From positions 1 to 41,650 of the IMG/VR virus record IMGVR_UViG_2778261458_000005: a stretch of DNA of 41,650 nucleotides; one strand, given 5' to 3'. The stretch is from a virus (taxonomy: Duplodnaviria > Heunggongvirae > Uroviricota > Caudoviricetes). Within the stretch, counting starts at the first letter, position 1; the number at the start of each line of letters is the position of its first letter. Shown here one piece after another: positions 4,128-41,650 of the stretch. The position numbers and the translations under genes are program-made. The notes beneath the pieces are model-generated. The model saw only the letters and a list, made by a program, of their open reading frames with translations. It was not told the origin of the DNA and ran no database searches.

Positions 4128-4610
4128 TTATTTGATAAGAAGTGAAGGTTTCCCAACTTTGAGTTGAGCGCCGGGGATATTTATTCCTGCTTTTAGTTGG
4201 TGTTTGATTGCCAGTTTGTCGGCTTTAATTGTCGTTTCAAACTCAACGTATTCAGGAGGAAGGGCGCTTGAGTCGATTATTTCTACAATTTCTGACGGTT
4301 TGCGAATTGTTACCTGGTGAATACCTGCTCGAATCTTTTTCTTGCCAACCATTTCAAGCGATGACGCTATATATGCCATAATGCTGTCAATCTTATTTTG
4401 AATTACTGCGGCTCTCTCATTTAGTGACTTTGCCTCTTCCTTGAGGCGTTCAGCATAACCAGATTCATTTTTAATAATGGCGAGAAGTTGCTCTATTTTA
4501 TCGGTAAATTCTCCTTCCATGCCTTCTATTGTGTCAGCAATCATCTCTGGCTCTAAATCTGAATCCATCAATTTTGCGTATTCATTGGCAATTTCATACA
4601 GTTTGCTCAC
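4128..4610 (-). CDS. Recombination-associated coiled-coil protein (Sipho_Gp157-like, tentative)
   Basis: Start taken at GTG 4610 with GGAGG RBS; immediately downstream of RecT as is typical for this family; family assignment from memory only. Confidence 0.5.
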   Translation of the reverse strand: MSKLYEIANEYAKLMDSDLEPEMIADTIEGMEGEFTDKIEQLLAIIKNESGYAERLKEEAKSLNERAAVIQNKIDSIMAYIASSLEMVGKKKIRAGIHQVTIRKPSEIVEIIDSSALPPEYVEFETTIKADKLAIKHQLKAGINIPGAQLKVGKPSLLIK

Positions 4611-5505
4611 TGGCAACCTCCAGTTTCGCTTTGCATTCTATGTAAATGGCTTGTACTTTCTGCTGCAATTTCATTCCAGATGTCAGGCGATATGCTTCTG
4701 CAAAATTTCGCTTCAAATCATCCATGTTTTCAGCCTGAGCCATTTCATCACAAAGAAGTTGTGCTTTTTCCATAATTTCCTGCTGTCGTTTCCGTTCATC
4801 TTCGCGGATATCTTCCTCTGATTTGTGCGGCATAACTGGTTCAGTCCACACACCTTCTTCTTCGTTTAGTACGTGAATAGCACTATCAAGACGTGATGCC
4901 TTAGGCCAATACTTGCTTGCACGCTTTACGACCGTCTTTCGCGCCATCTCATTCCAGTGATTTACCCATGGTCCTTTATCGCTGAATGCTGCCTTGCTTG
5001 TTTTCCTTACAGCCTCAATTTCAGCCAGACTCATCTCTTCCGTTAGATAATCACCTGCTGGCGTCTTAACTGTGCAGTAAACGCCAACAATATCACCACG
5101 ATCACCGAAGGCGTTGTATTTATGGGTTGGTGCTTTATCAAGCCCGTTTGACTCATAGGTATCGTTAGCATGAACAAGTTTTGCCTGACCCCATGAGATA
5201 ACACCAGACTCCATTGCAATATGGAGCAATCCCATATAACTGATATCAAGGTACACCATGCCGTCGCGCGGAACCAGATAAGCCAGTTTGCTAGCCGGGT
5301 TTAAGGTGATACCGATCGCCGCAACATTGATGATGGCGTTCTGTGCGCTGGTTGGATTTGCCAGTGCTGTTTTAGCCAGGTAATCATTTTTCTGGAAATA
5401 CTGAATTGCAAACTGGCTTTCCTTAGCCCATGTCACCGTCTGTTCAGTCAATGCTCCGCAGAATAACTGCTCTTGCTGTTTAACGAATTCAACGATATTG
5501 CTCAT
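4594..5505 (-). CDS. recT: RecT-family single-strand annealing recombinase
   Basis: 303 aa; conserved RecT core (NPTSAQNAIINVAAIGITLNP...); GGAGAAG RBS. Confidence 0.85.
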   Translation of the reverse strand: MSNIVEFVKQQEQLFCGALTEQTVTWAKESQFAIQYFQKNDYLAKTALANPTSAQNAIINVAAIGITLNPASKLAYLVPRDGMVYLDISYMGLLHIAMESGVISWGQAKLVHANDTYESNGLDKAPTHKYNAFGDRGDIVGVYCTVKTPAGDYLTEEMSLAEIEAVRKTSKAAFSDKGPWVNHWNEMARKTVVKRASKYWPKASRLDSAIHVLNEEEGVWTEPVMPHKSEEDIREDERKRQQEIMEKAQLLCDEMAQAENMDDLKRNFAEAYRLTSGMKLQQKVQAIYIECKAKLEVASEQTV

Positions 5506-12069: not shown

Positions 12070-12490
12070 AATTCGATCCCCAGCACATCAGCAAAACGCT
12101 ATTCACGCGGTACAGCAAATTCTTCCAGACCCAACCAAACCAATCGTAGTAACCATTCAGGAACGCAACCGCAGCTTAGACCAGAATCGAAAGCTTTGGG
12201 CTTGCCTTGGTGACGTCTCTCGTCAGGTTGAATGGCATGGGCGCTGGCTGGATGCAGAAAGCTGGAAGTGTGTGTTTACCGCAGCATTAAAGCAGCAGGA
12301 CGTTGTTCCTAACCTTGCCGGGAATGGCTTTGTGGTAATAGGCCAGTCAACCAGCAGGATGCGTGTAAGCGAATTTGCGGAGCTATTAGAGCTTATACAG
12401 GCATTCGGTACAGAGCGTGGCGTTAAGTGGTCAGACGAAGCGCGACTGGCTCTCGAATGGAAAGCGCGATGGGGAGATCGGGCTGCATGA
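12050..12490 (+). CDS. ninB: NinB (Orf-family recombination mediator)
   Basis: 146 aa, near-identical to lambda NinB as I recall it (MKKLTFEIRSPAHQQNAIHAVQQILPDPTKP...). Confidence 0.9.
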   Translation: MKKLTFEIRSPAHQQNAIHAVQQILPDPTKPIVVTIQERNRSLDQNRKLWACLGDVSRQVEWHGRWLDAESWKCVFTAALKQQDVVPNLAGNGFVVIGQSTSRMRVSEFAELLELIQAFGTERGVKWSDEARLALEWKARWGDRAA

Positions 12491-13014
12491 CTATCAAATC
12501 AAATACGCCGGCACACGACAAGGACTGCTGGCAAACGCCGTTTTGGCTTTTTGATGCACTGGATATTGAGTTTGGATTCTGGCTGGATTCGGCAGCGAGC
12601 GACAAAAATGCTCTGTGCGCTCACTGGTTAACTGAGGCCGACGACGCGCTCAATTCTGAGTGGGTAAGCCACGGTGCAATCTGGAATAACCCACCGTACA
12701 GCAATATCAGGCCGTGGGTGGAAAAAGCCGCTGAGCAGTGCATACAACAGCGACAGACGGTAGTTATGCTTGTGCCAGAGGATATGTCAGTCGGATGGTT
12801 CAGCAAGGCTCTGGAGAGCGTTGACGAAGTTCGCATCATCACTGATGGACGGATTAATTTTATCGAACCATCGACGGGGCTGGAGAAGAAGGGAAACAGC
12901 AAAGGCTCAATGCTGCTGATTTGGCGCCCGTTCATCAGTCCTCGACGGATGTTTACTACCGTATCCAAAGCGGCATTGATGGCGATCGGGCAGGGCGTCA
13001 GGAGGGTGGCATGA
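12487..13014 (+). CDS. Phage DNA N6-adenine methyltransferase (Dam-like)
   Basis: NPPY catalytic motif (IWNNPPYS); start at ATG 12487 overlapping the ninB stop (ATGA). Confidence 0.8.
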
Positions 13015-13964: not shown

Positions 13965-14632
13965 ATATCTACGAAAGAATTGATGGCAGCAAATACCGAA
14001 ATATTTGGGTAGTTGGCGATCTGCACGGATGCTACACGAACCTGATGAACAAACTGGATACGATTGGATTCGACAACAAAAAAGACCTGCTTATCTCGGT
14101 GGGCGATTTGGTTGATCGTGGTGCAGAGAACGTTGAATGCCTGGAATTAATCACATTCCCCTGGTTCAGAGCTGTACGTGGAAACCATGAGCAAATGATG
14201 ATTGATGGCTTATCAGAGCGTGGAAACGTTAATCACTGGCTGCTTAATGGCGGTGGCTGGTTCTTTAATCTCGATTACGACAAAGAAATTCTGGCTAAAG
14301 CTCTTGCCCATAAAGCAGAAGAACTTCCGTTAATCATCGAACTGGTGAGCAAAGGTAAAAAATATGTCATCTGCCACGCCGATTATCCTTGTGACGAATA
14401 CGAATTTGGAAAGCCAGTTGATCATCAGCAGGTAATCTGGAACCGCGAACGAATCAGCAACTCACAAGACGGGATCGTTAAAGAAATTAAAGGCGCGGAC
14501 ACGTTTATCTTTGGTCATACGCCAGCAGTGAAACCACTCAAATTTGCCAACCAGATGTATATCGATACTGGGGCAGTGTTCTGCGGAAATCTCACATTGA
14601 TTCAGGTACAGGGAGAAGGCGCGTGGGCATAA
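13961..14632 (+). CDS. Ser/Thr protein phosphatase (lambda PPase type)
   Basis: Metallophosphatase motifs GDLHG, GDLVDRG, GNHE; near-identical to lambda PPase as I recall it. Confidence 0.9.
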
Positions 14633-15111
14633 GAGAACTAAACCTCACCAAAGAACAGCACGAGTGGCTGAATGGCTGGCTTGAACTGTGGGGCGCATGG
14701 GTTTATTCAGGTCGTCTGGAAAAGCGCATGAGCAGCGTAATAGCTAAGTTCATGGAGAGCGTAGAGCCGGGAAGAGTTATGACAAGGCCAATGTGTAATG
14801 ATGATGATGGAATGTTGATTTCTCAGGTCGTCGATTCCGTCATGTACATTGACAAGAAAGCCTTTGGCATCCTCCTCAGCTACTACGCCCACGGCTCTTC
14901 CAAGCACGCCATTGCATCTTACTATCATCGCGTCGCAAGACCTCGCAAGATGTTATGCCGGGGCGGCGGGCGCATTCAAAAACCATCGCTCGCAACCTGT
15001 CGACGGGAAGTTGACGAAATCCTCAATGCCTCGTTGTTTATGATTTACCCGGTTCTGGATAGTGCGTTTAAAAACCGGAAACGTGTAGAGAAAATTAAAC
15101 ATGTAGCATAG
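14623..15111 (+). CDS. Late-gene antiterminator Q (P22 gene 23 family)
   Basis: LELWGAW...CNDDDGML resembles P22 gp23; GTG start overlapping the phosphatase stop (start uncertain). Confidence 0.75.
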
Positions 15112-15117
15112 AACGTG

Positions 15118-15146
15118 TTGACATCATTGAGCAAATGAGCAACACT
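15118..15146 (+). promoter_or_regulatory. Candidate late promoter PR' (-35 TTGACA)
   Basis: TTGACA 7 bp after the Q stop; -10 element unclear. Confidence 0.35.
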
Positions 15147-15156
15147 ATTCGCATAA

Positions 15157-15198
15157 GCTGCCGTTAGTGACTCTTAAGTTGCAACGGTGGCTTTTTTT
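15157..15198 (+). terminator. tR'-like terminator (end of a short 6S-like leader)
   Basis: Stem GCTGCCGTT/AACGGTGGC with G-U pairs followed by TTTTTTT. Confidence 0.55.
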
Positions 15199-15202
15199 AT
15201 TT

Positions 15203-15277
15203 GGGTCAGTCGTATAAAGGTCATTACGGAAGGCTGTTAACCTTCTTATCGTGGTTCGAGTCCACGCTGTCCCGCCA
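15203..15277 (+). tRNA. Phage tRNA, atypical; anticodon GUU (Asn) if the fold is correct
   Basis: Manual fold: T-arm CGTGG-TTCGAGT-CCACG, anticodon stem GAAGG/CCTTC with loop CTGTTAA, 3' GCCA; one acceptor mismatch and a compressed D-arm. Confidence 0.45.
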
Positions 15278-15282
15278 AATAT

Positions 15283-15358
15283 GCTGGTTTAGCTCCAATG
15301 GTAGAGCGGTCGCCTTGTAAGCGAATGGGTAGCGGTTCAAGTCCGTTAACCAGCACCA
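15283..15358 (+). tRNA. Phage tRNA, anticodon UGU (Thr) by manual fold
   Basis: Perfect acceptor stem GCTGGTT/AACCAGC, D-arm GCTC-CAATGGTA-GAGC, anticodon loop CTTGTAA, T-arm AGCGG-TTCAAGT-CCGTT, 3' ACCA. Confidence 0.7.
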
Positions 15359-15600
15359 TAACTGAGCCGTAGCCACTGGCTATCCTGAATTCATCAGTGA
15401 TAGTTACGCTGCGGCCTTCTACACATGACCTTCGTGAAAGCGGGTGGCATGAGGTTGCGATAACAACCTCATGCCGTTTTGCCCGTGCATATCGGTCACG
15501 AACAAATCTGATTACTAAACACAGTAGCCTGGATTTGTTCTATCAGTAATCGACCTTATTCCTAATTAAATAGAGCAAATCCCCTTATTGGGGGTAAGAC

Positions 15601-15924
15601 ATGAAGATGCCAGAAAAACATGACCTGTTAGCCGCCATTCTCGCGGCAAAGGAACAAGGCATCGGGGCAATCCTTGCGTTTGCAATGGCGTACCTTCGCG
15701 GCAGATATAATGGCGGTGCGTTTACAAAAACAGTAATCGACGCAACGATGTGCGCCATTATCGCCTGGTTCATTCGTGACCTTCTCGACTTCGCCGGACT
15801 AAGTAGCAATCTCGCTTATATAACGAGCGTGTTCATCGGCTACATCGGCACTGACTCGATTGGTTCGCTTATCAAACGCTTCGCTGCTAAAAAAGCCGGA
15901 GTAGAAGATGGTGGAAATCAATAA
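15601..15924 (+). CDS. S: Holin (lambda S type, dual-start MKM motif)
   Basis: 107 aa, near-identical to lambda S as I recall it. Confidence 0.9.
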
Positions 15925-34236: not shown

Positions 34237-34304
34237 AGTTGAAGCCCCAGCTGCGGGAACAGTCAGGGCTTCTGTTGTCAGTAAATTCGTGGAGAAAAAC
34301 CAAC

Positions 34305-35306: not shown

Positions 35307-37676
35307 ATGACAGACATTACAGCCAATTTTGTAGTGAGTATGCCATCGCAACTCTTCACTATGGCGCGTTCTTTTAAAGCTGTAGCTAATGGCAAAATTT
35401 ATATCGGAAAGATTGATACTGATCCGGTAAATTCAGAAAACCAGATTCCGGTTTATGTAAGGAGCGAAGACGGTTCTCATATTGCCGTCTCACAGCCAAT
35501 AGTTATCAATGCGGCTGGATACCCGGTATATAACGGACAGATTGCCAAGTTCGTAACTGTGCAAGGCCATTCTATGGCTGTTTATGATGCATATGGTGCA
35601 CAGCAGTTCTATTTCCCGAATATACTGAAGTATGACCCGGATCAACTACTTGCTGAATTGTCAGGTCCATGTGGATCTGAAATGATTGGACGACCGGGTG
35701 GTGGAACTGTAGCAGATGTGATGCCATTAAAGGTCGATTTAAACATTCATGTACCATCAGATTATTCTTCACTGTCCGAAGCTCTGTTAAGTCTACATGA
35801 CAAACGATTTCCTGATACGAAAGTTAACATCACCGTCGCTCCCGGACTGTACACTGAATCAGCTACGTTACCTTCGTCGCACATTGATGGTGAAAACATC
35901 AATATTACAGGTAACACACAGGTATTCACCGCATCCAGAGTAAATTCTGTGGTTGCAGGAACATTCTCAGTTAAACATTGGGATGGTGTAGTAAAAAATC
36001 TAAACTACCACATAGTTACAGCCACCGTAACAGGAGCTATTCCTCAAGTTGGGGAATACGTTCTCGTGCGTGGAGCGTCTGGTGCAGATACAGCAGAATA
36101 TCATCTTGGTGTATGGGAGGTTACTTCTGTTACAGGTAACCAAGTAACTTGGCTCACATCTCTTAATTCAGCGCCTCCTGTTGGTGACATTTCCCTGACT
36201 GGTTCAATACTGAAGACAGTAATTCATTTTCTTGACTCAGCGAAGGGACCAACTGCAGTTATGGTGGAGAATTCATTATCACTTGGAATGATTAACGGTA
36301 TTGCGTTTGTTGGTGCAGCGCGTCCGTTAGCATCAGGAAGTCGTGGACCTGATAAATATGACGTTTTTGGTGGGTATGGCGGCAATACTGGTATTGTGGC
36401 TAGAGATGGCGGTGTTCTCAACTTGGGATCAGATATAGGCGTTAGCGGGTTTTCCGGATCTAACGTTTATGCGAATCGCAGCGGGACCATTGTTGTCGGG
36501 ATTGGTGCTGCTTCCAGTAATTCAGCACGCAACGGTTGGGGATCCGCTTCTGCAGTTACCCAGTGCCAAGGGGTAATTTCCTCAGGTAACCTCATTGATG
36601 GTGTTATTGCTCAGGATACGGGATTTACTTTCGCCCCTAAATCTCGCTCATACGGGAACCACCGTCATGCATATGTAGCGTCAGGTGGCGCATCATTAAA
36701 CATGGCTAATTCTGTTGGGCGTGGAAATATAGGAAATGGCATTGATAATATTAACTCTACAGTGCTTGCAAATGGATGCGTAATAAGAGGCAACGTCGGC
36801 ATGGCAATAAATAATGCTGCCGGTCAGACACGTATGCCTAACAGTGATTTACGCAATAATTCCGGAGTTGTATGCTCCCTGCATGGTTCTCTAAATATTA
36901 CCAGCTCAAACTTAGATGGAGTTTCAGTTAGAGCAGTTTCTGGAGGTTTCATTGACGTTACTGGGGCAACTGGAGTTGCTACTTATACTCCCGTGCGTAA
37001 TCACTATTCTGTTTTTGGCGGTTTTATTTCAAGCGGCACTGCTCAGGATTTCATTGGGTTTAGTTCTACAGGAAGTAATTCAGTTATGCGCCTTTCAGGA
37101 GATAACCACGTTTTGATAGGAACAGCCGCAGATCTTGCTGGACTTCATGGCGCTCGCCTTCACTGTAATGGTCCAGCAGTATTTGCCGGTGATATTTATC
37201 CTTCGACAGATGCGACCAATAATATTGGATCAGCTTCATTGCGAATGAACATTGGATTTTTCGCGGGAGGAACGCAATCTAGTTCAGATGGCAGGCTTAA
37301 GGACCCAACAAGACCATTCAATCAGGCGGAAATGAATGCAGCAAAGCGACTAGCTGAAAAAATTGGATTCTGGACATGGATTGATGATGAAGAAAAACGG
37401 CTACATGCAGGCATGACTGTCCAGACTGTTCTGGAAATCCTTAACGACGAAGGACTTGACTGGAGGAGATATGGGTTCATAGGTTACGACAAATGGGATG
37501 ATGTTTTTGAGCCGGTGATTCGCGAGTTACCTGACGGTTCTAAGGAGGATTCTGGAGAAATTAAGATTGTTAGGGAAGCTGGCGATCTTTGGCAATTCCG
37601 CGATCAAGAACTGGACAGGTTTATTATGAGGGGGCTTTCTCAGAGACTAAGTGAGTTAGAGTCAAAACTTTCGTAA
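35307..37676 (+). CDS. Tailspike: P22 gp9-type head-binding N-domain, divergent beta-helix receptor domain, C-terminal chaperone-like domain
   Basis: N-terminal ~110 aa match the P22 tailspike head-binding domain; middle is Gly/Asn/Ser-rich with repetitive beta-helix character; last ~130 aa resemble the self-cleaving chaperone domain of endosialidase/T5 fibres (SSDGRLKD). Confidence 0.85.
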
Positions 37677-37755: not shown

Positions 37756-39015
37756 CTAAACAAGTGATTTTTTTAGTTTGTCTAATCTTTCATTTCTAAT
37801 CCTTATTCCATCTTCAAGTGTATTTTTAAGGGCGTCAACGAACGCCTTATTTTTTGGGCTTAGTTTCAATGCCGTGGAAAAATCATACTCTGCTTTGTCA
37901 TAATTACAAACATCCCGGTAGGCTAGGCCTCGCTGAAAGTAAGCTGAGGACAGCTTGGGATCAATTTCTGTAGCACGAGTTAATGATTTAATAGCATGCT
38001 CATATTTCTTATCCATTCTCAAACAGACTCCTAACTGTAGGTGAATTTTTGAGAAATCAGGGCATAGCTCTAATGCTTTATGTTGAGAGCTAATGGCTCC
38101 ATTAACATCTCCAGCTAAAAGCTGTGAAACTCCTAAAAAATACCATGCAGCCCCTGAGTCTGTAGCTAATGAAACGGCGCTGGAGGCTGCCTCAACAGCA
38201 TCAAGATAGTTTTTATTTTTTATATATTTATCGCACAGCATAATAAAACCAACTGCCTTATGGTTGGAATGTAAGCTGCCAGAGTTTGGCATGAAAGGTA
38301 ATGATTTTCCTTCAACAAATTCTGTTGATAACTTTAGTAATCCGTATTCTTTATTTATATAGTAAGCAGATGAATGTGCCTGATCTGTCAGAGTGTTCAC
38401 CAGACATCCTTTCACTGATGCAACTCTTTGAGCGTTGAATAAATCTGTTACATCCATCTCACCGGAATAAATATATGATTTAGATTTTGAATTTAACATT
38501 AAAGGCATGAGGTCTGGGAATTTCCTTGGCGAAGTATCTGGCATATTAATTTTAGACCTGCTTCCTGGTTGGTCCAGCAAAGTCTCTGGATCAAATGCTA
38601 ACGCATAAGCGTTTAACTTGCATCCAAAAAGCAACGCCCCATATCCACCCATGCTACTTCCCATGGTATATATCTTGTCAGCAGAAATAGTTCTAGCTAA
38701 GGATAAAATGAATTCACATGACTCATCAACAGATGATCCCATCCCCGGTATTCCATTTTGATACCATCCGTTATTAGCGTCATTAACATACAAAACATCG
38801 TACGGGAAATGAGTTAGAGTGTTGAAAAAAGTAAATCTTCCAGCCGGTATCTTCATGCTTGAAAATACAACCAGTAACTTACCATTGATGCTGCCACGCT
38901 GAAGAAGGAAATAGTCAGAGATAAATCCTTCATCAGGAATAGTTAATTTATACATATAATCAATACTATCGTAGTTGTCACTAAAAAATCCGAATTTTAT
39001 AGCGGTATGAGTCAT
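37756..39015 (-). CDS. Cargo gene: alpha/beta-hydrolase-like domain fused to C-terminal TPR repeats
   Basis: 419 aa; nucleophile-elbow motif GSSMGG in N-half; three or more TPR-like repeats in C-half; visibly AT-rich; no signal peptide. Confidence 0.7.
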   Translation of the reverse strand: MTHTAIKFGFFSDNYDSIDYMYKLTIPDEGFISDYFLLQRGSINGKLLVVFSSMKIPAGRFTFFNTLTHFPYDVLYVNDANNGWYQNGIPGMGSSVDESCEFILSLARTISADKIYTMGSSMGGYGALLFGCKLNAYALAFDPETLLDQPGSRSKINMPDTSPRKFPDLMPLMLNSKSKSYIYSGEMDVTDLFNAQRVASVKGCLVNTLTDQAHSSAYYINKEYGLLKLSTEFVEGKSLPFMPNSGSLHSNHKAVGFIMLCDKYIKNKNYLDAVEAASSAVSLATDSGAAWYFLGVSQLLAGDVNGAISSQHKALELCPDFSKIHLQLGVCLRMDKKYEHAIKSLTRATEIDPKLSSAYFQRGLAYRDVCNYDKAEYDFSTALKLSPKNKAFVDALKNTLEDGIRIRNERLDKLKKSLV

Positions 39016-39248: not shown

Positions 39249-40406
39249 TCACTCCACCTTTTCATCAACCCAATCCGCCCACCACTGCATCATTTCTCTG
39301 CGCTTATCGAGATACTGAGCATGGTTGTAAATTCCACGTACAGATCCGCCATTGGCATGTGCCAGTTGCACTTCAATAGCATCAGCAGGCCATTCGTGCT
39401 CGTTCATAATCGTGCTAAATTCATGCCTGAATCCGTGACCGCTTTCCAGACCTTCATAGCCGATTTGTTTGATCACAAGCAGTACCGCGTTCTCGCAGAT
39501 TGGCTTCTTCTTATCGTTGCGACCGGCAAAAACAAACTCTGACACTGGTTTAGTGATTGAGCTTAGCGTAGTGAGAAGTTCAACCACCTGGTCTGACATA
39601 GGAACCACATGAATTTTGCGTCCCTTCATCACACTGGCGTCGATGGTGATAATCCTGTTTTCAAAATCGACGTTCTTCCATTGCATGGAACGAAGCTCTT
39701 TCGTTCTTAGGACTGTGTAGCGTAAAACTTTGGTCGCAATGAGCGATACGATACTTCCTGAAAATGTTGCCAGTGCTTTATTGAATGCTGGGATCTGGTC
39801 GGCAGGTAAAAACGGGAAGTTCTTCTTGCGGTATCCCTTCATGGCGTCAGCAAGGTCAGGTGCCGGATTATATTTAGCCCTGCCGGTGACAATAGCGTAA
39901 CGGAAAACCTCGCCGCATCTTCTGCGTGCTTTGTTGGCTCGCTCCATTGCGCCGCGATCTTCAAATCTGCGGATTACTTCCAGCAGTTGCATCGGCTCAA
40001 TATCCTGAATTTCAAGGCCGCCGATGATGGGTAAAATGTCGTCATCAAACATTTTTGCAAGTTCAGTCGCATACCCTACTGACCAGACTTGCTTCTTGTG
40101 TTCGTACCATTCCTTGTAAATTGCACTAAAGGAATTGTTGTTAGACGAAGCCTTTTTCGCTTTTACCGGATCGATGCCAACCGAGATGTCTTTCCTCGCA
40201 GTCCATGCTTTATCCCTTGCATCCTGCAAAGTCATAAGCGGATATTTTCCGACAGTCAAGATTTTCTCCTTACCTTCAATCTTGTAGCGAAGCTGCCATA
40301 CCTTTTTCCCGGATACAGGGACATAAAGGTACAGGCCATTACCATCGAGTAGGCGGTATGGTTTTTCTTTTGGCTTTGCTGCTTCAATCTGCTTAACGGT
40401 GAGCAT
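39249..40406 (-). CDS. intS: Tyrosine integrase (P4/IntS type)
   Basis: Start taken at ATG 40406 (385 aa, the K-12 IntS length; ORF-track start 40442 is GTG); N-terminal arm-binding motif KPYRLLDGNGLYLYV; C-terminal catalytic HxxR...Y region. Confidence 0.9.
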   Translation of the reverse strand: MLTVKQIEAAKPKEKPYRLLDGNGLYLYVPVSGKKVWQLRYKIEGKEKILTVGKYPLMTLQDARDKAWTARKDISVGIDPVKAKKASSNNNSFSAIYKEWYEHKKQVWSVGYATELAKMFDDDILPIIGGLEIQDIEPMQLLEVIRRFEDRGAMERANKARRRCGEVFRYAIVTGRAKYNPAPDLADAMKGYRKKNFPFLPADQIPAFNKALATFSGSIVSLIATKVLRYTVLRTKELRSMQWKNVDFENRIITIDASVMKGRKIHVVPMSDQVVELLTTLSSITKPVSEFVFAGRNDKKKPICENAVLLVIKQIGYEGLESGHGFRHEFSTIMNEHEWPADAIEVQLAHANGGSVRGIYNHAQYLDKRREMMQWWADWVDEKVE

Positions 40407-40567
40407 GGGTAAAAATCCGGTGGGTAAAATTATTTTATCCACTTTTTACCCGTCATGGAGTGCGGCTGTCAACGATCTGACGCGAACCATTACGAACTGC
40501 TAATCTACGGAAGGCTTGATATTCATGGGATTTTGCGGACTGGTACGGATGGTAGAGAACTGATAAA

Positions 40568-40642
40568 TGGTGTCCCCTGCAGGAATCGAACCTGCAATTA
40601 GCCCTTAGGAGGGGCTCGTTATATCCATTTAACTAAGAGGAC
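40568..40642 (-). tRNA. argW: tRNA-Arg, anticodon CCU
   Basis: Minus strand folds as a 75-nt tRNA (GTCCTCTTAGTTAAATGG...GGTTCGATTCCTGCAGGGGACACCA), anticodon loop CCTCCTAAG; matches E. coli argW as I recall it. Confidence 0.9.
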
Positions 40643-40717
40643 AATGCGGCATGAGTATACCCGCTAATGGACTGCGGGGTAAGTACGCTGCCGCTCGATT
40701 GCTTAAACCCTCGCCAT

Positions 40718-41650
40718 TTATGCCGGGTTTTTATCATTTTTCTTAATATTTTCCGCACGTTCTGCTTTTTGGCGTGCTTCTGCTTTGCGCTTGTTGCTCA
40801 TGTCGTTGCGGATCTGTGCATGACTCATTAACGCGAAGATAAAGGTGCCGCCGCAGATGTTCCCCGCTAAAGTAGGTAGTGCGAAGGGCCAGATGAAATC
40901 GCTCCAGTGCAGCGTACCGTTAAACACCAGATAGAGGATTTCAACAGAACCGACAACGATGTGAGTGGTGTCACCCAGGGCAATAAGCCAGGTCATCAAT
41001 ATAATCACCACAATCTTTGCCGCACCCGCTGCAGGAAACATCCAAACCATAGTGGCGATCAGCCAGCCGGAAATGATCGCGTTGGCAAACATCTCGCTGG
41101 GGGTGTTCTTCATCACATCCATGCCGATTTTGACAAATGCATCGCGAGTTTCTTCATTGAAGATTGGCATATATTCAAATGCCCACGCCGCAATACCTGT
41201 CCCGAGAATATTACCCAGCAGCACGACGCCCCATAACCGCATAAGTAAGCCAACGTTGCTTATTGTCGGTTTTTGCATGACGGGTAGTACCGCAGTCACG
41301 GTGTTTTCGGTAAATAATTGCTGGCGGGCCATAATGACGATAATAAAACCAAAGGTATAACCGAGATTCTCCAGCAAGAAACTGCCCGGCACACCTTCCA
41401 GTTCGACATGAAATATCCCTTTTGCCAGTAATGAAGCGCCCATCGACAGACCCGCCGCAATGGCTGACCACAGTAGCGCCATTGCGTCGCGTTCCAGCTC
41501 TTTTTCACCATCCTGGCGGATATGCTCATGAATTGCCATCGCCCGGGAGGGGAGTCGGTCTTCATCTATTTCTATTTTTTTGCCGCGCTCTTTTTCTTCG
41601 CTCTCAACTTCAATTTCGTCGCTGTGTTGATCAATTTTGTCGTTGTCCAT
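40718..41650 (-). CDS. yfdC: Formate/nitrite transporter family inner-membrane protein
   Basis: 310 aa with multiple TM helices; the K-12 neighbour of argW is yfdC; start codon is at the window edge. Confidence 0.85.
   Translation of the reverse strand: MDNDKIDQHSDEIEVESEEKERGKKIEIDEDRLPSRAMAIHEHIRQDGEKELERDAMALLWSAIAAGLSMGASLLAKGIFHVELEGVPGSFLLENLGYTFGFIIVIMARQQLFTENTVTAVLPVMQKPTISNVGLLMRLWGVVLLGNILGTGIAAWAFEYMPIFNEETRDAFVKIGMDVMKNTPSEMFANAIISGWLIATMVWMFPAAGAAKIVVIILMTWLIALGDTTHIVVGSVEILYLVFNGTLHWSDFIWPFALPTLAGNICGGTFIFALMSHAQIRNDMSNKRKAEARQKAERAENIKKNDKNPA

Follow-up and report, generated by a model that had tools for sequence, protein, structure and literature searches.

Results

Organisation of the late control region

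The DNA analysed here (the window, 41,650 nt in full) is a P22/Sf6-like prophage in which a late control region of the coliphage 21 type is followed by two tRNA genes. The features from the antiterminator gene to the first protein gene of the late operon are listed below.

14623..15111, + strand: Q antiterminator gene, phage 21 type (162 codons; Pfam PF06530 Phage_antitermQ, 87.4 bits)
15118..15123, + strand: −35 hexamer of the PR′ late promoter, TTGACA (same as the annotated phage 21 pR′ −35, OL657228)
15126..15141, + strand: Q-binding element (QBE), two 8-bp repeats, ATTGAGCA and AATGAGCA (same as the QBE annotated in OL657228)
15141..15146, + strand: −10 hexamer of PR′, AACACT (transferred from the phage 21 annotation; identical bases)
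15153, + strand: late transcription start (transferred from the phage 21 annotation; identical bases)
15154-15160, + strand: sigma-dependent pause element TAAGCTG (transferred from the phage 21 annotation; identical bases)
15155..15202, + strand: tR′ leader terminator, a bulged hairpin followed by U7 (folding; terminator in the phage 21 and Sf6 annotations)
15203..15277, + strand: tRNA-Asn(GUU), 75 nt including an encoded CCA (ARAGORN; Rfam; identical phage 21 gene; covariation)
15283..15358, + strand: tRNA-Thr(UGU), 76 nt including an encoded CCA (ARAGORN; Rfam; 75/76 identity with phage 21; covariation)
15446..15480, + strand: 12-bp hairpin followed by GUUUU, between tRNA-Thr and the holin gene (−26.2 kcal/mol, z = −4.9)
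15601..15924, + strand: lambda-type S holin gene, the first protein gene of the late operon (Pfam PF05106, 105 bits; the region 5′ of S aligns to lambda)

The Q protein shares 162/162 amino acids with phage 21 Q. The QBE (ATTGAGCAAATGAGCA, 15126-15141), likewise identical to that of phage 21, is a tandem 8-bp element placed between the −35 and −10 hexamers, and its annotation in OL657228 cites Yin et al. 2019. The initial annotation had read the region as Q, late promoter, leader terminator and then tRNAs for Asn (GUU) and Thr (UGU), an order that matches the curated phage 21 (OL657228) and Sf6 records, both of which annotate this layout of Q, late promoter, terminator and tRNAs; the Sf6 entry adds 'similar to phage 21'. 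Its hairpin-plus-U7 terminator (15157..15198) was confirmed by folding: the tR′ hairpin spans 15155/15157-15191/15193 with an energy of −20.2 kcal/mol (z = −4.3; equally stable shuffles, 0/200), and the U7 tract follows at 15192-15198. A simple terminator scan of 14600-15700 gave no match, because the hairpin is bulged and the scan permits no bulge. The description of the leader as '6S-like', by contrast, had to be dropped. From 15153 to the U-tract the leader measures about 46-50 nt, far below the lambda 6S RNA leader (roughly 190 nt, from PR′ to tR′), and it cannot be aligned to the latter, so that the two are analogous, not homologous. A predicted Q21-family antiterminator, QBE, pause element and intrinsic leader terminator are all present; Q-dependent read-through is established for phage 21 itself, and the putative control sequence here is identical.

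The U-tract and tRNA-Asn are separated by 4 nt and the two tRNA genes by 5 nt, and no further promoter-like site was found between Q and the tRNAs. Both genes were accepted by ARAGORN and by Rfam RF00005, at 15203-15277 and 15283-15358, the + strand has no long ORF over them, and the sole overlapping ORF is an antisense one of 50 aa. A permissive Rfam scan of 15050-15650 (E = 1) returned no RNA family besides the two tRNAs. Since ARAGORN, Rfam and folding place the elements there, the earlier coordinates were judged exact. Further downstream, the hairpin at 15446-15480 is conserved in both lambda and HK446, with a compensated change at a single pair (GGCAGGAGG/CCTCCTGCC versus GGCATGAGG/CCTCATGCC); its probable function is that of a second terminator, which polymerase modified by Q would pass.

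The surrounding sequence is recognised as a P22/Sf6-like prophage by a sar RNA, a tailspike with a P22 head-binding domain, and an int gene beside tRNA-Arg(CCU) and a host-like transporter gene. The sar antisense RNA of the P22 immI region lies at 34237-34304 on the − strand (Rfam, 84.8 bits), and the tailspike (35307-37676, + strand) has a C-terminal Peptidase_S74 (endosialidase chaperone) domain in addition to the head-binding domain. The prophage end at an argW-type tRNA (39249-41650, − strand) is marked by the integrase gene (397 aa), by a complete tRNA-Arg(CCU), which lies at 40568-40642, and by a gene of the formate/nitrite-transporter family; the window limits fall exactly on gene boundaries. 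Between the tailspike and int genes, on the opposite strand, a 419-aa TPR-repeat protein is encoded at 37756-39015 (− strand). It gave no PADLOC match and a single PHROG match, to a family of unknown function, and may be an accessory gene. In the nin region an orphan DNA methyltransferase gene was found at 12427-13014 on the + strand (PADLOC oMTase, 68.7 bits; PHROG 111). When ten accessory ORFs were searched with PADLOC for a prophage-borne tRNA nuclease or another known defence gene, this orphan methyltransferase was the only match.

Structure and conservation of tRNA-Asn

The first tRNA scores 55.3 bits with Rfam RF00005 (gathering score, 29) and carries several unusual features, namely U4.U69 in the acceptor stem, U13.U22 in the D stem and a 4-nt variable loop, together with G73. 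The acceptor mismatch noted in the initial annotation is therefore real and is U4.U69. The compressed D-arm described there was correct in part: the D stem consists of three Watson-Crick pairs plus U13.U22, whereas the D loop has a normal 8 nt and the shortened part is the variable loop. U8, A14, G18 G19 and the T loop GGTTCGAGTCC are in place. For both tRNAs, identity elements were checked against the established lists for the Asn and Thr synthetases; those for Asn are present (G34 U35 U36 and G73), and CCA is encoded. The thermodynamic fold is unremarkable (z = −1.7).

A pattern search of viral contigs recovered 119 loci of the window tRNA-Asn type, 94 of them in Asn-Thr arrays. The sequence is unchanged in phage 21, Sf6 and ST64T, and in 91 of the 119 viral loci. 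Positions 30-40, the T loop and the 3′ end were fixed by the pattern used in this search, and their columns are therefore uninformative for covariation. Among the 17 distinct 75-nt sequences, compensatory changes were found at five pairs: 5:68 (C:G or A:U), 6:67 (A:U or G:C), 7:66 (G:C or A:U), 28:42 (A:U, C:G or U:A) and 29:41 (A:U or U:A). Double-change cells numbered 23; shuffles gave 6.9 ± 1.8 (0/500), and slid registers no more than 4. The oddities of this tRNA are conserved among its relatives, the 4-nt variable loop included: position 4:69 is U.U in 14/17 distinct sequences and a Watson-Crick pair in none, and U13.U22 is kept in 17/17.

A second lambdoid tRNA-Asn(GUU) family was observed in phages of Klebsiella, Enterobacter and E. 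coli (loci L009-L128, for example HK639, HM208537 44363-44437). It has the acceptor stem GGGUCAG/CUGUCCC, including U4.U69, in common with the window gene, and differs from it in the D, anticodon and T arms. Its arrays consist of Asn alone, Asn-Arg(UCU), Asn-Thr or Asn-Gly(UCC)-Thr.

The two mismatches, the short variable loop and the unremarkable folding energy could also be expected of a decaying pseudogene, or of a structured element other than a tRNA, such as a processing or stability signal in the late transcript. This reading is very improbable. The sequence is identical in phage 21, Sf6, ST64T and most of the viral loci, five stem pairs covary while the mismatches are fixed, and the U4.U69 acceptor stem recurs in the second family with other D, anticodon and T arms; in addition, G73, the GUU anticodon, G18 G19, the T loop and CCA are intact and the Rfam score is about 55 bits. 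Pseudogene identity was rejected on covariation and conservation. Of the options left by the initial annotation, a divergent functional tRNA is the one chosen: because its stem pairs covary and its identity elements and encoded CCA are present, tRNA-Asn is predicted to be functional and no pseudogene.

Structure and conservation of tRNA-Thr

The second tRNA scores 61.2 bits with Rfam RF00005 (gathering score, 29) and differs from the phage 21/HK446 gene at one of its 76 positions, position 26 (window 15308), which is G in the window and A in phage 21. It had been described as folding canonically with a UGU anticodon for Thr. The cloverleaf and the assignment to tRNA-Thr(UGU) stand, as called by ARAGORN and Rfam, but the fold departs from the canonical one in C14, in a G27.A43 mismatch atop the anticodon stem and in a G50.U64 wobble. 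U8, G18 G19 and GGTTCAAGTCC are present, as are the Thr identity elements G1:C72, C2:G71, G35 U36 and A73, and CCA is again encoded. Position 14 (window 15296), which partners U8 and is nearly always A in tRNAs, is C here; in the relatives of this gene it is C, U or G, and A in none. Across 23 distinct sequences six pairs had double changes, compared with 1.9 ± 0.8 in shuffles (0/500), slid-register controls were far lower, and G27.A43 was kept in 23/23. As part of the joint explanation given in the Discussion, both genes are likely to be working elongator tRNAs.

One viral contig (L228:1359-1434) carries a chimeric tRNA-Thr whose 5′ half is of the phage type and whose 3′ half, anticodon arm included, is that of host thrU, followed by a glyT-like tRNA-Gly(UCC). 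This arrangement points to recombination of the phage cassette with the host thrU-tyrU-glyT-thrT operon.

Relation to phage 21 and mobility of the tRNA pair

The best database match of 15112-15420 is coliphage 21 (OL657228), with 99.0% identity over the full length. Only three differences occur in 309 nt, at 15280 in the spacer, at 15308 (position 26 of tRNA-Thr) and at 15385 downstream, and every element from the −35 hexamer through tRNA-Asn is base-identical. Element order and spacing are the same in both phages. The tRNA set of the window is the phage 21 set, which fits the remark in the initial annotation that it differs from the sets of Stx-type lambdoid phages. Beyond this unit the two part: downstream, a lambda-type S/R lysis cassette in the window takes the place of the pinholin and SAR endolysin of coliphage 21, and the remainder of the window prophage is instead P22/Sf6-like. 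By these comparisons, the late control unit of phage 21 and its tRNA pair have been transplanted into a prophage that is P22-like and whose lysis cassette is of the lambda type. The unit is already known and partly characterised, and its two tRNA genes have been annotated for decades; first characterisation of the phage 21 region is credited in the SfI paper to Guo, Kainz and Roberts 1991 (PMC3636060).

The same paper reported tandem Asn(GUU)/Thr(UGU) genes 3′ of Q in SfI and one or both of them in Sf6, ST64T, PS3 and phage 21 (PMC3636060). In the present comparison the Asn-Thr pair lies between Q and the holin gene in the Shigella phages Sf6 (AF547987) and SfI (JX509734), in Salmonella phage BTP1 and in other P22-like and lambdoid phages. 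Identity of the pair to that of the window is 100% in SfI and 98.7% in Sf6, whose annotation lists tRNA-Asn and tRNA-Thr with PR′, qut and tR′ but whose Q gene and QBE region are only ∼90% identical to the window. In RefSeq, 1,028 of 5,426 complete E. coli genomes, about a fifth, have a match to the region; among the top E. coli matches listed, tRNA-Asn and tRNA-Thr stand beside an 'antiterminator Q family protein'.

In phage HK446, Q, PR′ and tR′ are of the lambda type; behind them come a tRNA-Asn identical to that of the window, a tRNA-Thr of the phage 21 allele and then the same sequence as in the window. When lambda, HK446 and the window were aligned, tR′ was common to lambda and HK446, lambda had ∼160 nt of unrelated sequence exactly at the tRNA position, and all three realigned after the tRNA-Thr CCA up to S. 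Since the leader of HK446 is of the lambda type and yet precedes the same tRNA pair, the pair is a separate module replacing ∼160 nt of lambda. A lambda relic of the pair between tR′ and S was looked for and rejected, with alignment similarity at chance level. Among viral contigs carrying the exact tRNA-Asn of the window and at least 90 nt of upstream sequence, the phage 21 QBE leader was found in 32, the same terminator with another QBE in ∼40, lambda tR′ in 11 and another terminator in 2. The arrays of relatives can be extended, as in Asn-Phe-Thr-Arg(UCU), Asn-Gly(UCC) and further combinations. As judged from these alignments and leaders, the Asn-Thr pair is a mobile cassette.

Phage P1 also has an Asn-Thr tandem, an independent one (AF234172 69348-69501), with the same two anticodons in the same order and in direct adjacency, although its sequences differ (Thr, ∼81% identical) and its genomic context is another one. 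In the ST64T/L/PS3 group (for ST64T, L002:776-852) the Asn gene is intact and the second slot holds a divergent tRNA-like sequence that ARAGORN does not call; in the phage L record this slot is tRNA-Leu(UAA).

Codon content of the late genes

Codon use in the late genes of the window was compared with a host reference of 35 K-12 genes (50 kb). ACA occurs 16.0 times per 1,000 codons in the late genes versus 5.3 in K-12, a threefold difference, and accounts for 28% of Thr codons versus 10% (p = 1e-13). Asn residues number 55.8 per 1,000 versus 37.4, a 1.5-fold difference (p = 6e-9), and in the coat gene 22 of the 24 Asn codons are AAC.

These figures are what would be expected if the tRNAs served only to raise decoding capacity for ACA and Asn codons, with differences at nuclease sites being incidental divergence. 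The optional Arg(UCU) and Gly(UCC) tRNAs of relatives fit the same explanation, as they decode the rare codons AGA and GGA, which are likewise enriched here. For Asn the argument meets a difficulty in the several host tRNA-Asn genes, which in E. coli are asnT, asnU, asnV and asnW, and in the Asn codon choice of the window, which is near the host's. Supply has also been argued for the tRNAs of SfI (PMC3636060) and phage L (PMC8022706), but the SfI authors reported no Asn codon bias (PMC3636060). With the nuclease data below also weighing against it, supply as the sole function is doubtful.

Predicted resistance of tRNA-Thr to OLD

Cleavage of host tRNA-Thr(UGU) is the chief means by which P2 OLD, the classic anti-lambda system, kills; the cuts follow the C in the paired CNG motifs (28-30 and 40-42) (PMC12445682). 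Host thrU supplied from a plasmid is unprotective, whereas phage tRNA-Thr(UGU) protects (PMC12445682). The phage 21 tRNA-Thr has itself been tested: it has a shortened anticodon stem and changes of the C28U/G42A type, resists P2 OLD, protects cells and restores ACA decoding (PMC12445682). In Thr6, the best-studied rescue tRNA, resistance is determined chiefly by the anticodon arm (PMC12445682). The tRNA-Thr of HK446, which has the same sequence as that of phage 21, restores plating of the OLD-sensitive phages HK97, HK542 and Bas34, while lambda is not rescued from OLD by the viral tRNA-Thr alone (bioRxiv 10.64898/2026.07.10.737580). This rescue of cells by a resistant tRNA, where plasmid-borne host thrU gives no protection, counts against supply as the only function of the pair.

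The anticodon arm of the window tRNA-Thr, GUCGC CUUGUAA GCGAA, is that of phage 21 and HK446; it has UCG and CGA where the host has CUG and CAG, as well as G27.A43. The A26G difference from the tested allele lies outside this arm. The window gene has the sequence features of the OLD-resistant tRNA-Thr21 class, that is, a UGU anticodon, altered CNG at 28-30/40-42 and a shortened stem at 27:43. Evasion of OLD is established for the phage 21 allele, a one-base variant of the window tRNA-Thr, which by analogy may share it. The OLD-resistant tRNA-Thr genes of T4, T5, Bas32 and Bas33 have the same anticodon as the window gene and unrelated sequences. The early-left recombination module at 4128-5505 (− strand) has genes for an annealing protein like RecT and for an end-protection protein like Mu Gam; it is relevant here because OLD is triggered by RecBCD interference.

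Phage tRNAs might instead act mainly as decoys that bind or block tRNA nucleases, without serving as translation substrates. Overexpressed viral tRNAs possibly compete with host tRNAs for AriB, the PARIS nuclease (PMC12409363). Under OLD, however, degradation of host thrU continues in the presence of the phage tRNA (PMC12445682; bioRxiv 10.64898/2026.07.10.737580), which indicates rescue by replacement rather than by inhibition, and a decoy role is accordingly rated as highly unlikely.

Comparison of tRNA-Asn with PARIS targets

Host tRNA-Asn(GUU) is a target of PARIS (AriB) (PMC12409363). The AriB site is U36-A-A-U39-C40|N41; U39A abolishes cleavage, and A41C and U16C impair it (PMC12409363). 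The corresponding positions of the host and window tRNAs are as follows.

Host Asn (asnT): positions 36-41 UAAUCC; position 16 U; CNG at 28-30 and 40-42, both
Window Asn: positions 36-41 UAACCU; position 16 A; CNG at 28-30 and 40-42, neither
Host Thr (thrU): positions 36-41 UAAUCA; position 16 U; CNG at 28-30 and 40-42, both
Window Thr: positions 36-41 UAAGCG; position 16 A; CNG at 28-30 and 40-42, neither

Both window tRNAs thus lack U39 and U16, the reported AriB cleavage determinants. U39 is also absent from 135/136 phage Thr(UGU) copies, sampled beside phage Asn genes, a regularity that again weighs against supply as the sole explanation. The T5 tRNAs for Lys, Thr and Asn are resistant and jointly neutralise PARIS (PMC12409363). 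The window has the same anticodons as two of these three AriB targets, and in the T5 variants U39 and U16 are substituted as they are here; the sequences are unrelated, however, and T5-type tRNAs belong to an early tRNA cluster, whereas the window is a temperate phage with late, Q-controlled tRNAs and no tRNA-Lys(UUU). A resistant tRNA-Lys(UUU) is necessary for escape from B185 PARIS (PMC12409363); ARAGORN found three tRNAs in the window, namely Asn, Thr and the attachment-site Arg, with tRNA-Lys(UUU) absent.

Among close relatives of the Asn gene, those of Klebsiella phages (anticodon stem GCAGG/CCUGC) have regained both CNG motifs. In phage P1, tRNA-Asn keeps the AriB motif UAAUCA (U39) and tRNA-Thr keeps both CNG motifs. 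The CNG motifs of the Klebsiella-phage genes and the UAAUCA of P1 Asn show that evasion is no uniform trait of phage Asn tRNAs. Moreover, nucleases target low-abundance tRNAs that read rare codons, so supply and evasion are confounded and predict overlapping sets of tRNAs. The literature searched yielded no experiment on a phage 21-type tRNA-Asn and no published explanation of its role, and no AriB cleavage or infection data for the window tRNA sequences. We hypothesise that tRNA-Asn may evade nucleases, which is offered as a testable lead.

Discussion

The explanation that we consider likely is that a coliphage 21 late control unit, situated in a P22/Sf6-like prophage, is followed by two working tRNAs that sustain decoding through both supply and nuclease resistance. 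Polymerase would start at PR′ (15153) and pause at the sigma-dependent pause element. Without Q, transcription would stop at tR′ (15155-15202) after roughly 46-50 nt; once Q21 occupies the QBE (15126-15141) and has been loaded on the polymerase during the pause, tR′ would be read through into tRNA-Asn(GUU), tRNA-Thr(UGU), the second hairpin and the lysis and virion genes, in that order. The tRNA cassette would in this way be transcribed ahead of everything else in the late operon, and host processing enzymes would be expected to excise the tRNAs from the late transcript. The mature tRNAs could then sustain decoding of ACA and of AAC/AAU during synthesis of the Asn-rich and ACA-rich late proteins, acting both through added supply and through poor susceptibility to the defence nucleases that destroy the host versions. 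Such resistance is experimental for the phage 21 Thr allele against P2 OLD, and is extended here to Asn by inference.

With phage 21 Q, the region belongs to one of the best-studied transcription antitermination units and carries small weight as a discovery. The remaining interest lies in tRNA-Asn, the partner of the OLD-countering tRNA-Thr, which is matched in about one-fifth of complete E. coli genomes. Having lost U39, U16 and the two CNG motifs, this tRNA would be able to escape OLD-family Toprim tRNases such as PARIS AriB, and U4.U69, U13.U22 and the short variable loop are perhaps contributors to such escape. We therefore put forward, tentatively and as something short of an even chance, that the phage 21-type tRNA-Asn is the invariant first gene of a modular tRNA cassette, which occurs downstream of three or more kinds of lambdoid late leader, and is, in addition, a nuclease-proof replacement tRNA; in that case the Asn-Thr pair might serve temperate enterobacterial phages as a dedicated counter-defence module under Q control, with a role beyond codon supply.
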